Shown here piece by piece: positions 3,136 through 41,875 of a stretch of DNA of 64,000 bases (its first letter is position 1; each line of letters begins with the position of its first letter). The notes under the pieces were generated by a model, which was not told the DNA's origin, made no database searches, and saw only the letters and a list, made by a program, of their open reading frames with translations. Source of the DNA: Eledone cirrhosa (lineage: Eukaryota); assembly GCA_964016885.1 (NCBI GenBank), contig OZ024741.1, positions 308,326,001-308,390,000 of the forward strand. The letters are read 5' to 3'. The position numbers were made by a program, and so were the translations under genes.

Positions 3136-5095
3136 TGGTTGTGGTGGTTGTGCCGGTGTTGGTGTTGGTGTTGTTGGTTGTGGTGGTGTTGGTGTTGATG
3201 GTTGTGGTGGTTGTGGTGTTGATAGTTGTGGTGGTTGTGGCGGTGTTGGTGTTGATGGTTGTGGTGGTTGTGGTGGTGTTGGTGTTGATGTTGATGGTTG
3301 TGGTGGTGTTGGTGTTGATGGTTGTGGTGATTGTGGTGGTGTTGGTGGTGATGGTGGTGGTGGTTGTGGTAGTGTTGGTGTTGATGGTTGTGGTGGTTGT
3401 GGTGGTGTTGGTGTTGTTCGTTGTGGTAGTTGTGGTGGTGATGGTTGTGGTGGTTGTGGTGGTGTTGGTGTTGATGTTGATGGTTGTTGTGGTTGTGGTG
3501 GTGTTGGTGTTGATGGTTGTGGTGGTTGTGGTGGTGTTGGTGGTGATGGTGGTGGTGGTTGTAGTGTTGGTGGTGATGGTTGTGGTGGTTGTGGTGGTAT
3601 TGGTGTTAATGGTTGTGGTGGTTGTGGTATGTTGGTGGTGATGGTTGTGGTGGTTGTGGTGGTTGTGGTGGTGTTGGTGGTGATGGTTGTGGTGGTTGTG
3701 GTAGTGTTGGTGTTGATGGTTGTGGCGGTGGTGTTGGTGTTGATGATGTGGTGGGGTTGGTGGTGGTGGTTGTGGTGGTTGTGGTGGTGTTGGTGTTGAT
3801 GGTTGTGGTGGTTGTGGTGTTGATGGTTGAGGTGGTTGTGTTGGCGTTGATGGTCGTGGTGGTTGTGGTGGTTGTGGTGGTGTTGGTGTTGATGGTTGCT
3901 GTAGGGTAGTGTTGGCGTTGATGGTTGTGTTGGTTGTGGTGGTGTTGGTGTTGATGGTTGTTGTAGTGGTGGTGTTGGTGTTGATGGTTGTTGTAGTGGT
4001 GGTGTTGGTGTTGATGGTTGTTGTAGTGGTGGTGTTGGTGTTGATGATTGTGGTGGTTGTGGTGGTGTTAGTGTTGATTGTTGTGGTGGTTGTGGTTGTG
4101 GTGGTGGTGGTGTTGATGGTTGTGATGGTTGTGGTGGTTGTGGTGTTCCTGGTTGAGGTGGTTGTGTTGGCGTTGATGGTCGTGGTGGTTGTAATGGTTG
4201 TGGTGGTGTTGGTGTTGATGGTTGTTGTAGTTGTGGTGTTGCTGTTGATGGTTATGGTGGTTGTGGTGGTGATGGTTGTGCTGGTTGTGCTGGTTGTGGT
4301 GGTGTTGGTGTTGATGGTTGTGATGGTTGTGGTGGTGGTGGTGGTTGTGGTGGTGATGGTTGTGCTGGTTGTGCTGGTTGTGGTGGTGTTGGTGTTGATG
4401 GTTGTTGTAGTTGTGGTGTTGCTGTTGATGGTTATGGTGGTTGTGGTGGTGATGGTTGTGCTGGTTGTGCTGGTTGTGGTGGTGTTGGTGTTGATGGTTG
4501 TGATGGTTGTGGTGGTGGTGGTGGTGGTTGTGGTGGTGATGGTTGTGCTGGTTGTGCTGGTTGTGGTGGTGTTGGTGTTGATGGATGTGATGGTGGTGGT
4601 GGTTGTGTTGATGGTTGTGATGGTTGTGGTGGTTGTGGTGGTTGTGGTGGTGTTGGTGTTGATGGTTGTGGTGGTGTTGGTGTTGTTGGTTGTGGTGGTG
4701 TTGGTGTTGATGTTGATGGTTGTGGTGGTTGTGGCTGTGTTGATGGTTGTGGTGGTTGTGACGGTGTTGGTGTTAGTTTTATGGTGGTTGTGGTAGTGGT
4801 GGTGTTGATGGTTGTGGCGTTGGTGGTGGTATTGGTGTTGATGGTTGTGGTGGTTGTGGTGGTGATGGTTGTGCTGGTTGTGGTGGTTGTGGTGGTGTTG
4901 GTGTTGATGGTTGTGGTGGTTGTGGTGGTGTTGGTGTTGATGGTTGTGGCGGTTGTGGTGGTGTTGGTGGTGCTGGTTGTGGCGGTGGTGTTGGTATTGG
5001 TGTTGATGCTTGTGGTGGTTGTGGCGGTATTGTCGGTATTGGTGGTGGTGGTTGTGATGGTGGTGGTGGTATTGGTGTTGATGGTTGTGGTGGTA
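3050..5095. repeat. Cryptic GGT/GTT/GAT trinucleotide-based repeat with recurring GGTTGTGGTGGTGTTGGTGTTGAT units
   Basis: Seen directly. It produces the Val-, Gly-Cys- and Pro-Gln-rich ORFs in several frames. Confidence 0.95.
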
Positions 5096-9000: not shown

Positions 9001-9563
9001 GTCATATTTATACGAGCCTAGCAAACCCAGAAATATGGCTGGTTTGTTCCTTTCAAAAGATGTTATAGTAGGATTTGAACTATGTAGTAATAGGTACACA
9101 GAAGAGGGGGGGGGTAGTCAGCAACAGACTAAACAAAGAAAATGCAAAAGGTTGTAGGTTCAAATTTTAATTAATTAGATTTCATTCTTCTGTAATCGTA
9201 AATAAACTTATTTCAAAAGTTTCTAGAGAATTTCTAATTATTTCTTTTTCTTTTTTTTCTTCTTTTTTTTTTCTTTGTTTTTTTTGTTATTCTAGAGATC
9301 CCCGAACACTTCTAAAATAACATTGAATGTTTTAAAGTCTTAAAACTACCTTAAAACATCTCGTCATATATATATACTTATATACTGAGTTGCATTACGT
9401 CGAGTGCTTTCCATAATATTACATCGAGGTTGACTACAGTCAATGACCAGTTCTATCCAGTAATGAACCAACAAACCTAAATAAATAAATATATATATAT
9501 ATCCTCTTTTTCTCTCTTTCTCTCTCTTTTTCCACCTGGCCTTTTGATTAATAAAAGGCCTCG

Positions 9564-9638
9564 GGCGCACCCGAACTACACCGATGTCCTGTATTTCAGC
9601 GCCGAAACATCGGTTCAGGAAACATTTACAGCTGACGA
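9564..9638 (+). ncRNA. Permuted (reverse-order) hammerhead-like motif, copy A1
   Basis: GGCGC...ACCGATGT-C-CTGTA-tttcaGCGCC-GAA-ACATCGGT-...-TACAG-CTGACGA: stem III 8 bp, stem I 5 bp, GUC site. Confidence 0.6.
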
Positions 9639-10331
9639 TGGAAACTCCTTTCTTCCTTTCTCCTCCTGTTCCGTCCTAACCACCATCCTAAACCTTATTT
9701 TTAGTAACCACACAGCTCCTTTCGTTTCATAACTTTTTATATTTACCGCTGTGACCCTACCTGCTTTGGTCGATCTGTGTTCCCTCCACACTTTCGCATC
9801 GACCCTCCCTTCTGTCTTCCCTTCTCCTCCTCACTCTCGTTTTTTTTTTCTCTCCCTCTCTCTCTCTATCCATCCGTTCGGTTTTGATTGTTGACGTATT
9901 TACACGTGCCGTGGTGGCCTCTCTGTCCGCAATCTTTGCGGCATGTTTTTACCACCGTTGTAAAGAAACCCTTCTGCATTTTCTCCCTTTCCCTTCTCCT
10001 CCTCACTTTTGGTTGCCCGTGTCTCTCTCTCTCACTTTCTCCTATCTATGTGAGAAGCAGCACGATTATACCAGCTCTGAGTCGTAGCTGACCACCAGGC
10101 TAAAGTCTCCCAGGTTGGCCACAACTTACTTTCCCTATTTTTCCACGGTTACATTTTTGCATGTTTCTTTCACCTGTGTCTTCCCACGATGGGACCTGTA
10201 CACATTTTTTCTTCTATTCCTTTCCTATTTTCCCCTTCTTCCTCCTTTCCCTCTCTTTCCTTTTTACTCTCCTCTTTTTCTCTCTTTCTCTCTCCTTTTC
10301 CAACTGGCTTTTTGATTAATAAAAGGCCTCG

Positions 10332-10406
10332 GGCGCACCCGAACTACACCAATGTCCTGTATTTCAGCGCCGAAACATCAGTTCGGGAAACATTTACAGC
10401 TGACGA
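10332..10406 (+). ncRNA. Permuted hammerhead-like motif, copy A2
   Basis: Same as A1, with two CpG-type transitions in distal stem III (ACCAATGT/ACATCAGT). Confidence 0.55.
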
Positions 10407-10506
10407 TGGAAACTCCTTTCTTCCTTTCTCCTCCTGTTCCGTCCTAACCACCAACTTAAACCTTATTTTTAGTAACCACACAGCTCCTTTCGTTTCATAA
10501 CTTTTT

Positions 10507-10557
<51 letters not shown>

Positions 10558-13544: not shown

Positions 13545-13580
13545 TCCTAACGTTTCGGACGTTAGTCTTTCATCAGAAGA
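13545..13580 (-). ncRNA. Minimal type I hammerhead ribozyme in a pLTR fragment (13481-13620)
   Basis: Minus strand TCTT-CTGATGA-aaGAC(taac)GTCc-GAAACGT-T-AGGA. Confidence 0.75.
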
Positions 13581-23113: not shown

Positions 23114-23149
23114 TCTTCTGATGAAGGACTAGCGTCCGAAACGTTAAGA
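23114..23149 (+). ncRNA. Minimal type I hammerhead ribozyme in a pLTR fragment (23068-23229)
   Basis: TCTT-CTGATGA-a-GGAC(tagc)GTCC-GAAACGT-T-AAGA. All stems are intact. Confidence 0.85.
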
Positions 23150-29337: not shown

Positions 29338-29393
29338 ACTGCTATATATATTTCGATGATAGCCATTGAATGGCTATGACCTCATCAGGCAGT
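29338..29393 (-). ncRNA. Type I hammerhead ribozyme
   Basis: Minus strand ACTGC-CTGATGA-ggtc-ATAGCCATT(c)AATGGCTAT-catc-GAAA-TATATA-TA-GCAGT. Confidence 0.75.
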
Positions 29394-32009: not shown

Positions 32010-33931
32010 ACACAACTTTGGTCCCCTCTATATCATCTAACACATAGGTCCCCTCTATATCATCTAACACATAGGTCCCCTCTATATCATCTAACACATG
32101 GGTCCCCTCTATGTCATCTAACACATAGGTCCCCTCTATATCATCTAACACATAGGCCCCCTCTATATCATCTAACACATAGGCCCCCTCTATATCATCT
32201 AACGCATAGGTCCCCTCTATATCATCTAACACATAGGTCCCCTCTATATCATCTAATACATAGGTCCCCTCTATATCATCTAACACATAGGTCCCCTCTA
32301 TATCATCTAACATATAGGTCCCCTCTATATCATCTAACACATAGGCCCCCTCTATATCATCTAACACATTGGTCCCCTCTATATCATCTAACACATAGGT
32401 CCCCTCTATATCATCTAACACATTGGTCCCCTCTATATCATCTAACACATAGGCCCCCTCTATATCATCTAACACATAGGCCCCCTCTATATCATCTAAC
32501 ACATATGTCCCCTCTATATCATCTAACACATAGGCACCCTCTATATCATCTAACACATTGGTCCCCTCTATATCATCTAACACATAGGTCCCCTCTATAT
32601 CATCTAACACATTGGTCCCCTCTATATCATCTAACACATAGGCCCCCTCTATATCATCTAACACATAGGCCCCCTCTATATCATCTAACACATAGGTCCC
32701 CTCTATATCATCTAACACATAGGTCCCCACTATATCATCTAACACATATGTCCCCTCTATATCATCTAACACATAGGCCCCCTCTATATCATCTAACACA
32801 TAGGTCCCCTCTATATCATCTAACACATAGGTCCCCTCTATATCATCTAACACATAGGCCCCCTCTATATCATCTAACACATAGGTCCCCTATATCATCT
32901 AACACATAGGTCCCCTCTATATCATCTAACACATTGGTCCCCTCTATATCATCTAACACATAGGTCCCCACTATATCATCTAACACATAGGTCCCCTCTA
33001 TATCATCTAACACATAGGCACCCTCTATATCATCTAACACATATGTCCCCTCTATATCATCTAACACATAGGCCCCCTCTATATCATCTAACACATTGGT
33101 CCCCTCTATATCATCTAACACATTGGTCCCCTCTATATCATCTAACACATAGGCCCCCTCTATATCATCTAACACATAGGTCCCCTATATCATCTAACAC
33201 ATAGGTCCCCTCTATATCATCTAACACATAGGTCCCCTCTATATCATCTAACACATAGGCACCCTCTATATCATCTAACACATTGGTCCCCTCTATATCA
33301 TCTAACACATAGGCACCCTCTATATCATCTAACACATAGGCCCCCTCTATATCATCTAACACATAGGTCCCCTCTCTATCATCTAACACATAGGTCCCCT
33401 CTATATCATCTAACACATAGGTCCCCTCTATATCATCTAACACATAGGCACCCTCTATATCATCTAACACATTGGTCCCCTCTATATCATCTAACACATA
33501 GGTCCCCTCTATATCATCTAACACATTGGTCCCCTCTATATCATCTAACACATAGGCCCCCTCTATATCATCTAACACATAGGTCCCCTCTCTATCATCT
33601 AACACATAGGTCCCCTCTATATCATCTAACATATAGGTCCCCTCTATATCATCTAACACATAGGCACCCTCTATATCATCTAACACATTGGTCCCCTCTA
33701 TATCATCTAACACATAGGTCCCCTCTATATCATCTAACACATTGGTCCCCTCTATATCATCTAACACATAGGCCCCCTCTCTATCATCTAACACATAGGT
33801 CCCCTCTATATCATCTAACACATAGGCCCCCTCTATATCATCTAACACATAGGTCCCCTCTCTATCATCTAACACATAGGTCCCCTCTATATCATCTAAC
33901 ACATAGGTCCCCTCTATATCATCTAACACAA
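32010..33931. repeat. 27-bp minisatellite (ACACATAGGTCCCCTCTATATCATCTA), ~70 units
   Basis: Seen directly. The few unit variants are GGTCC/GGCCC/GGCAC and ATAGG/ATTGG, and two units are 2 bp short (~32885, ~33180). Confidence 0.97.
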
Positions 33932-40794: not shown

Positions 40795-41875
40795 TAATTG
40801 TTTCTACTTTTGGCACAAGGCCAGCAATTACCCCCCAGTGCATTACTGGTACTTTATTTTATCGACCCCGTAAGGATGAAAGGCAAAGTTAACCTCGGTG
40901 GGATTTGAACTCAGATCATAAAGGGCCGTAACTCTATGCTTCAAAGCATGGTGTCCGACCCTCTACCGATATTGCCAATCCACCATTATAATAATAATAA
41001 TTGTTTCTACTTTTGGCACAAGGCCAGCAATTACTCAGTGTATTACTGGTACTTTATTTTATCGACCCCGTAAGGATGAAAGGCAAAGTTAACCTTAACT
41101 ATAATAATTATTAGCATCTCAGTAGAGCGTCGGACAACAGGCTTCATCGCATGGAGTTACGGCCCTTTACTTTCTGAGTCCAAACCCCACCGAGGTTAGC
41201 TTTGCCTTTCATCCTTACAAGGTCGATAAAATAAAGTACCAGTAATGTACTGGGGTCGATTTAATCGAGTTTCCTCCTTCCCCAAATTGCTGGTCTCGTG
41301 CCTATAGTAGAAATCATTATTAAGAGGGCGTTGGATTGGCAGTATCGGTAGAGTGCCGGATGCCATGCTTTGCAGCATAGAGTTACGGCCCTTTATGATC
41401 TGAGTTCAAATCCCGCTGCGGTTAACTTTGCCTTTCATCCTTACGGGGTCGATAAAATAAAGTACCAGTAATGTACTGGGTCGATTTAATTGACCTTCCC
41501 CGCCGCAACATTGTTTGCTTTGTGGCGATATAAGAAACCATTATTAACAGGGCGGTGGATTGGCAGTATCGGTAGAGTGCCGGATGCCCTGCTTTACAGC
41601 ATAGAGTTACGGCCATTTGCGTTCTGAGTTCAAATCCCGCAGAGGTTAGCTTTGCCTTTCATCCTTACGGCGTCGATAAAATAGACCACCAGTAATGCAC
41701 TGGGGTCGATTTAATCGAATTTGCCCGCCCCCAAAATTGCTGGCCTTGTGCATAAAGTAGAAATCCTTATTACTATTATTATTATTAACTAAAATATATC
41801 ATCATTATTTTATAAAGTACCAGTAATGCACTGGGTAATTGATGGCCTTGTGCCTAAAGTAGAAACAATTATTTT
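40795..41875. mobile_element. Cluster of about six SINE copies (two -, four +)
   Basis: Repeated SINE core at ~40850 (-), 41050 (-), 41200, 41430, 41650 and 41815 (+). Confidence 0.9.

Follow-up and report, generated by a model that had tools for sequence, protein, structure and literature searches.

Eckert et al. (2023) described six orders of the hammerhead blocks and assumed the CUGANGA block to be indivisible from stem II; type SGC came from metatranscriptomes and type CSG, with only two reported sequences, from metagenomes, and none came from the genomes of known organisms (PMC10085705). In the literature searched, outside which most subscription papers lie, the term type-SGC is used by Eckert et al. 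alone, and one further paper merely cites the permutations (PMC13725137). Insertions of Penelope-like elements (PLEs) typically show partial tandems, inverted 5′ copies, and a bias toward microsatellites (PMC8557442). Craig et al. (2021) described the PLE clade Naiad as being without a canonical hammerhead, flagging eight "half cores", and reported only Naiad remnants in cephalopods (PMC8557442). Non-autonomous Chlamys elements such as MRC1 carry PLE pseudo-LTRs that were mistaken for LTRs and generally share 3′ sequence with an autonomous family (PMC8557442). Animal non-LTR retrozymes are noncoding head-to-tail units with one hammerhead motif per unit (PMC7229834; 10.64898/2026.07.22.740005); they have type I hammerheads, often long arrays, and proven circular RNAs, and have been proposed to be non-autonomous PLE derivatives (Cervera and de la Peña 2020; Li, Clavereau and Pollet 2026). 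The type of element reported below is in this respect already known.

We analyzed a 64,000-nucleotide stretch (hereafter the window) of the 3.0-Gb, microsatellite-rich genome of Eledone cirrhosa. The initial annotation had described a retrozyme-like element with direct repeats of about 235 bp lying 768 bp apart, a noncoding pyrimidine-rich interior, and (TA)n on both sides. By measurement, the repeats are 237 nt long, differ at 8 positions (96.6% identity), and are spaced by 768 nt; the longest ATG-started frame of the element is 103 aa, and both (TA)n tracts are present (Table 1). Each repeat contains, in order, GUC, GAAAC, and CUGACGA, as expected for the permuted hammerhead motif that had been annotated in it. 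The window element is noncoding and lacks the Naiad-type ORF (N-terminal GIY-YIG, CxC, DKA motif, and C-terminal RT). A search of the whole window at the Rfam gathering thresholds gave no match.

Table 1 Features of the element in the window.
Position	Strand	Feature
9490..9502	none	Left-hand (TA)n tract, target microsatellite
9502..10269	+	A 768-nt head-to-tail unit, truncated 5′ at an arbitrary point
9502..9738	+	Repeat 1 (pseudo-LTR), corresponding to the preceding unit's 3′ end
9538..9560	+	Hairpin with AATAAA (9550–9555) in loop and 3′ arm; present in subfamilies A, B, and C
9564..9568	+	Strand D, GGCGC, the stem II 5′ strand; pairs with 9599–9603
9570..9574	+	Helix IV 5′ strand; pairs with 9615–9619 (4 of 5 pairs here; the family majority has all of them)
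9580..9593	+	Block S: stem III 5′ strand (9580–9587), C17 (9588), stem I 5′ strand (9589–9593)
9599..9614	+	Block G: stem II 3′ strand (9599–9603), GAA (9604–9606), stem III 3′ strand (9607–9614)
9627..9638	+	Stem I 3′ strand (9627–9631) and core CUGACGA (9632–9638)
9739..10269	+	Noncoding pyrimidine-rich interior with an internal duplication (9817–9873 and 9989–10049, 75%)
10270..10506	+	Repeat 2, the insertion's actual 3′ end
10332..10406	+	Second D-S-G-C motif; C17 is 10356; stem III 4 bp, helix IV 7 bp
10509..10554	none	(TA)23 on the 3′ side, target and 3′ junction

The insert consists of 1.3 head-to-tail units cut at a random 5′ point, and its two "LTRs" are the overlap of these units. 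Since other copies continue past repeat 1 into the end of the preceding unit, the repeats are not element-terminal. Several other features lie in the window. A different high-copy repeat (9386–9490) ends just 5′ of the left (TA)n, as indicated at 9386 by read depth and loose ends. Minimal PLE hammerhead motifs of the ordinary kind, from other families, occur near microsatellites at 13553–13576 (−), 23118–23141 (+), and 29351–29388 (−). We also found a GT-rich minisatellite (3136–5094), a 27-nt array of about 71 copies (32020–33930), and a 224-nt unit in 2.8 copies (41149–41772).

The element proved to be multicopy, in support of its annotation as a non-autonomous element: a 30-nt piece of it had 265 exact matches in the genome versus 0 for a control, and the repeat used as a query gave 1116 first-look candidates, a figure that is not a copy number. 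A duplication unique to the locus, the outcome that had been named as speaking against the annotation, does not apply, because hundreds of dispersed copies exist. Among the first 30 loci, most have a single 3′ repeat with an interior of variable length, and 28 have no pair of full repeats like those of the window. In a second set of 30 loci, chosen by the repeat/interior junction, at least 9 run upstream past repeat 1 into the unit's end, and 4 carry an inverted 5′ piece. Read depth over the element was high in three runs of one sample. In DNA contigs of one sample, neither an empty site nor a piece spanning the locus was found.

For an 80-copy set, the first 100 of the 265 matches gave 88 loci and 85 rows, from which four segmental duplicates and one row cut by the fetch edge were left out. 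The copies in this set are 57–1182 nt long (median 481 nt; these lengths are lower bounds), and 64 of them have their 3′ end at unit positions 234–245. Sixteen are longer than one unit and eight cross two sites. (TA)≥3 flanks 72 copies at the 3′ side and 45 at the 5′ side (raw counts, not set against the genome background), which bears out the annotated PLE-type insertion into (TA)n. The motif spacing was 746–821 nt in 15 of 16 measured pairs, the remaining pair being a 194-nt local duplication; the 768-nt unit therefore holds at the locus but not across the family. The mean divergence from the majority base was 3.6% (75 segments), and the family is young. One insertion (L402–L407; G000:C3, 89.4–90.1 Mb) is found in at least four loci about 140–150 kb apart, which represents a segmental duplication.

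The copy pattern of the family is the one described for PLE insertions. Its pseudo-LTR partial tandems, 5′ truncation, inverted 5′ copies, and fixed 3′ end are those of a non-autonomous Penelope-like element, and its head-to-tail noncoding unit with a ribozyme motif in every unit is that of a non-LTR retrozyme, although its hammerhead is not type I. Compared with animal non-LTR retrozymes, the window family has a non-circularly permuted motif and dispersed copies of at most 1.5 units, and it is known here from DNA alone. With Naiads, the window element shares the (TA)n target, partial tandems, inverted 5′ copies, and an RNA fold at the 3′ end; unlike them, it has no ORF, no sequence similarity outside the fold, and a young age (3.6% divergence). 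A plant-type LTR retrozyme was also considered and rejected, as two true LTRs with fixed element ends were not found. A related possibility, either an LTR-type retrozyme or a tandem duplication confined to the locus, draws on the two direct repeats that flank the interior. However, the hundreds of dispersed copies, mostly with a single repeat, the copies that run past repeat 1 into the unit's own end, and the high read depth in the three runs of one sample all contradict it, so that this reading is refuted by the copy structure across the genome and retains only a vanishing probability.

The motif contains every base of the hammerhead core, arranged non-circularly as site–GAAA–CUGANGA. Stem II is paired with the strand 5′ of the site (D) rather than with what follows CUGANGA, and the fold is closed by a fourth helix. 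In the window, the bases after CUGACGA form 0 bp with 9602–9603, or 2 bp with one base bulged. The resulting strand order D-S-G-C is predicted to open the core between A9 and G10.1. PLE hammerheads with an unpaired base here have been described (PMC4209133), so the link is tolerant of such a base. The initial annotation had thus recognized the permuted core but had missed the upstream stem II strand and, more importantly, the link to Naiads. Both window copies are mutated: copy 1 has one helix IV mismatch (A9617) and lacks the sixth stem I pair (T9594), and in copy 2 the substitutions A10351 and A10380 reduce stem III from 8 to 4 bp. A local hairpin (9561–9574, −7.4 kcal/mol) competes with stem II (−7.9 kcal/mol) in the window family, whose nested minimum-energy fold is not the ribozyme; nested folding is unable to score the pseudoknotted form.

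A pattern of the block order S-G-C had 780 matches in the genome versus 47 for its reversed control, and therefore the window motif is not a chance occurrence. Two further S-G-C patterns gave 219 versus 14 and 74 versus 4 matches against reversed controls, and the patterns revealed several subfamilies that differ in their helix letters. All four helices persist in subfamily E despite other letters, and D and helix IV are kept in subfamilies B, E, and K. In the old copies of subfamilies F, G, and J, on the other hand, a bulge or a first-pair mismatch disturbs the pairing of D, which counts against the fold.

The order S-G-C and the helix joining stems I and II are those of type SGC; unlike in type SGC, the stem II strand does not directly follow CUGANGA, and block C is not intact. 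The circular types I, II, and III (CGS, GSC, and SCG without crossing stems) do not apply to an S-G-C order with crossing stems. By eye, readings as a minus-strand hammerhead, a hairpin ribozyme, or an HDV-like ribozyme did not fit. D-S-G-C shares with SGC and CSG of Eckert et al. the cyclic block order, the core, a link of 1–7 nt between stems I and II, and a fourth helix that ties these stems together at their far sides (PMC10085705). It differs in that its chain would be opened inside block C, at A9/G10.1, and in that it sits in animal retroelement DNA; cleavage by SGC and CSG has been demonstrated experimentally, whereas D-S-G-C is known here as a sequence. Judged from the strand orders, SGC, CSG, and GCS can be read as three openings of one block cycle and D-S-G-C as a fourth, outside the six orders of Eckert et al. 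The literature searched contained no hammerhead open at A9/G10.1, none with this link open that was shown to cleave, and no permuted hammerhead in Naiads.

The same fold was found at the 3′ ends of Naiad-type loci. A broken Naiad RT of the genome led to 150 proteins, of which 30 were aligned, and thence to the best 80 of 442 metagenome stretches. The D-S-G-C descriptor matched in 18 of these 80 loci, 3′ of the RT and 20–548 nt past the stop codon. Controls gave no match on the antisense strand (0/80) or in the last 1500 nt of the RT match (0/80), and one match in 20 shuffled sets of 3′ regions. Neither D-S-G-C nor CSG was present in 60 of the 80 loci, which counts against the reading preferred below; at least 300 nt of 3′ sequence was available in 50 of the 62 loci without D-S-G-C. 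Clustering of the 18 loci by RT identity yields 17 groups at 90%, 13 at 70%, and 11 at 60%, and an N-terminal endonuclease motif precedes the RT in 13 of them, the rest being cut by contig ends or without an N-terminal match. In eight (L260, L261, L280, L283, L284, L286, L301, and L311), the ORF continues for 326–381 aa past the RT; all three long ORFs tested matched Pfam UCH (PF00443; E values of 1e-26 to 3e-35), representing a deubiquitinase-domain fusion.

When loci were chosen on the core and stems I and III with no condition on stem II, the same 18 were returned. All 18 have an upstream stem II partner of 5–6 bp. The bases after the core reach at least 4 bp in none of them and form 0–1 bp in 17, and an equal control window downstream reaches 5 bp in 3. 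A set of 20 elements was formed from 17 of the 18 loci, the window, and subfamilies B and E. Neither the core nor the pairs G10.1-C11.1 and U16.1-A15.1 vary in it; every element has CUGANGA, GAAA, and an NUH site, as do both window copies, and D always begins with a G opposite C11.1. Pairing in this set was 0.99–1.00 with the own partner versus 0.60–0.68 with swapped partners.

In a nine-row alignment, 92% of the cells are paired versus 31–46% in slid controls, and none of 500 shuffles matched this value, which related rows inflate. Changes on both sides occurred in 16 of 24 pairs (stem II, 5 of 6; helix IV, 6 of 9), and all four helices contain compensatory changes. Because MAFFT misregistered strand D (alignments A2 and A3), the pairs were counted in 9 of the 18 loci with the window copy left out. 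The covariation rows were picked by the descriptor, so that they are free of selection only for the stem II test and helix IV. Covariation in stems I, II, and III, together with G10.1-C11.1 and U16.1-A15.1, is as expected of a hammerhead.

The supplement of PMC8557442 was covered for the two motifs at 15 of 30 and 15 of 17 places; within this part, D-S-G-C was recognized by eye in seven published Naiad consensuses, including Naiad_Ovul, which is flagged there as HHR_half_core, and the CSG type of Eckert et al. in three entries. The type-CSG motif is also present in two Naiad-type 3′ regions (L282:3470–3560 and L295:2920–3000). An ordinary tandem was rejected, as no second CUGANGA directly precedes D in any of the 18 loci. 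In one clade, D is preceded by a 6-nt CUGAUG-like vestige without A9 (0–1 mismatch in five related loci); this vestige suggests that a partial tandem duplication of CSG, followed by loss of its first core, gave rise to D-S-G-C. In their stem I letters, two type-SGC-variant rows in the supplement of PMC10085705 resemble Naiad motifs, e.g., those of L280 and L301, and such metatranscriptome ribozymes may come from PLE transcripts.

Taken with the copy pattern, these data make it likely that the element is a young non-autonomous Penelope-like retroelement of the non-LTR-retrozyme type, with a unit of about 750–820 nt, that carries a Naiad-type D-S-G-C hammerhead. A minor rival for the window family is an ordinary type-SGC hammerhead with a stem II of 2 bp (GG/CC) after one bulged base, in which D would be accessory or inhibitory. 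Most members of subfamilies A, B, and C could form such a stem, as could the two octopus Naiad consensuses, natural hammerheads with two-pair stems II exist (PMC3088659), and a bulged base at this place is common in PLE hammerheads (PMC4209133). Nevertheless, 17 of the 18 Naiad loci and subfamily E have only 0–1 bp after the core, all 18 loci pair 5–6 bp with D, and the first G of D opposite C11.1 is invariant in all 20 elements, which makes the plain SGC form improbable. The fold may instead be conserved but inactive, as a hammerhead-derived element that binds protein or stabilizes RNA, or may need the PLE protein or dimerization in order to cleave. In support of this, the backbone of the core is interrupted at A9/G10.1, a joint of only 0–6 nt connects helices III and IV on one strand and strains the monomer fold, and cutting has left no genomic trace in the 80 copies. 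Luense et al. reportedly described dimeric variants of PLE hammerheads in 2017. PLE hammerheads are often weak, dimeric, or protein-assisted (PMC11167929, PMC4209133). Against this, all 20 elements retain the catalytic bases and an NUH triplet despite differing helix letters, and the closely related types SGC and CSG are active in vitro (PMC10085705); we regard this alternative as rather unlikely. For the family and the Naiad examples, self-cleavage after C17 is quite likely by analogy, less so for the two mutated window copies, and the cut sites annotated after C9588 and C10356 find support in the same analogy.

The D-S-G-C ribozyme could also serve the classic retrozyme cycle of the initial annotation, in which two cuts release a unit-length RNA that circularizes and acts as a template, giving a 768-nt circle from the window locus. 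The head-to-tail units, the copies longer than one unit, and the passage of copies through the site all fit this cycle, which has been shown for animal type I retrozymes (PMC7229834). An uncleaved multimer fits them equally. Moreover, the longest aligned copy among the 80 is 1182 nt (1.5 units; lengths are lower bounds), the loci fetched contain no long tandem array, stem III is damaged in copy 2 of the window, and the main in vitro substrate of another PLE was unprocessed RNA (PMC11167929). The circle is thus possible rather than probable.

The search for an autonomous partner sharing the repeat, which the initial annotation had called for, yielded no intact one in the genome. Unlike MRC1-like elements, the window element has no partner here with which it shares 3′ sequence: such sharing was found with neither the Naiad remnants, one presumed Neptune-type family, nor two other intact PLE loci. 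Since comparison with Naiad remnants, metagenome Naiads, and the tested intact PLEs revealed no DNA similarity, the link to Naiads comes from two features, the shared fold and the (TA)n target. The Naiad remnants of the genome comprise broken RT and endonuclease sequences (145 matches; L122, L125–L154, and L229), are old (16.8% divergence; 30 loci), and have 3′ ends too decayed to read. One RT pattern gave 0 matches in the genome and the other 2, including one broken Naiad RT. In three protein searches (best 150 of 220, 51 of 14065, and 150 of 4600 candidates scored), all Naiad RTs were broken, and intact RTs of other PLE clades were reached by the 150-of-4600 search. The published octopus Naiad motif had no exact match, and neither a homologous-protein search with a 95-aa piece nor a search of viral contigs produced a match.

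An endonuclease-motif pattern gave 1789 genome matches, and the 30 fetched represent one intact family with a C-terminal endonuclease and a different 3′ end, presumably Neptune-type by its domain order. This family also ends at (TA)n and has the same age as the element family (3.4% divergence; 30 loci). In 29 of 30 of its loci (L091–L120), no CUGANGA occurs within 1.5 kb after the endonuclease motif, and some copies end at (TA)n within those 1.5 kb. There is about an even chance that one of the intact C-terminal-endonuclease PLE families is the current helper of the element; a Naiad helper is a weaker candidate, as Naiads were found only in old and broken form.

On the preferred reading, the RNA would fold with stem II built from the upstream strand D, helix IV would tie the far ends of stems I and II, and the usual core would assemble though A9 is not joined to G10.1, with predicted self-cleavage after C17. 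A PLE RT/GIY-YIG protein acting in trans would nick (TA)n, and reverse transcription would begin at an internal RNA position some 150 nt 3′ of the site. The 3′ junction has a few bases in common with (TA)n, and unit sequence extends past it; from these features we infer internal initiation, by analogy with an Anolis PLE that started reverse transcription internally on unprocessed RNA in vitro (PMC11167929). The template would be an uncleaved multimer or a re-ligated circle, from which the RT would drop off at random. In the 80-copy set, which could not include copies starting 3′ of unit position 101, no excess of 5′ ends was observed at the site (3 of 80 at unit 85–101 versus about 2.6 expected on the basis of the 13 starts at unit 1–84), and 77 copies run through the predicted site; one copy of another, non-random set starts exactly at it (L037). 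Given this lack of an excess and the 77 copies that cross the site, a linear cleaved monomer is not the usual template; a circle would fit, as would an uncleaved multimer. The probable role of the ribozyme is to trim read-through tandem transcripts to unit length, the insertion itself not needing it.

More tentatively, and somewhat short of an even chance, D-S-G-C may be an active seventh natural hammerhead order with its chain opened inside the core. Derived from CSG by partial tandem duplication, it would constitute, together with CSG, the missing ribozyme of Naiads across invertebrate phyla, and it would here have outlived its Naiad host in noncoding units that still spread, probably via the enzyme of another PLE clade and unit-length circular RNA. 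Evolution keeps a fold that separates CUGANGA from stem II, contrary to the assumption of Eckert et al., and present descriptors would miss D-S-G-C motifs in any genome scan. Non-circularly permuted hammerheads had no known genomic host in the literature searched; here they occur in a named retroelement clade and, within an animal genome, in hundreds of copies. The fold explains at least one Naiad half core and restores a hammerhead core to a PLE clade that was thought to have lost it.
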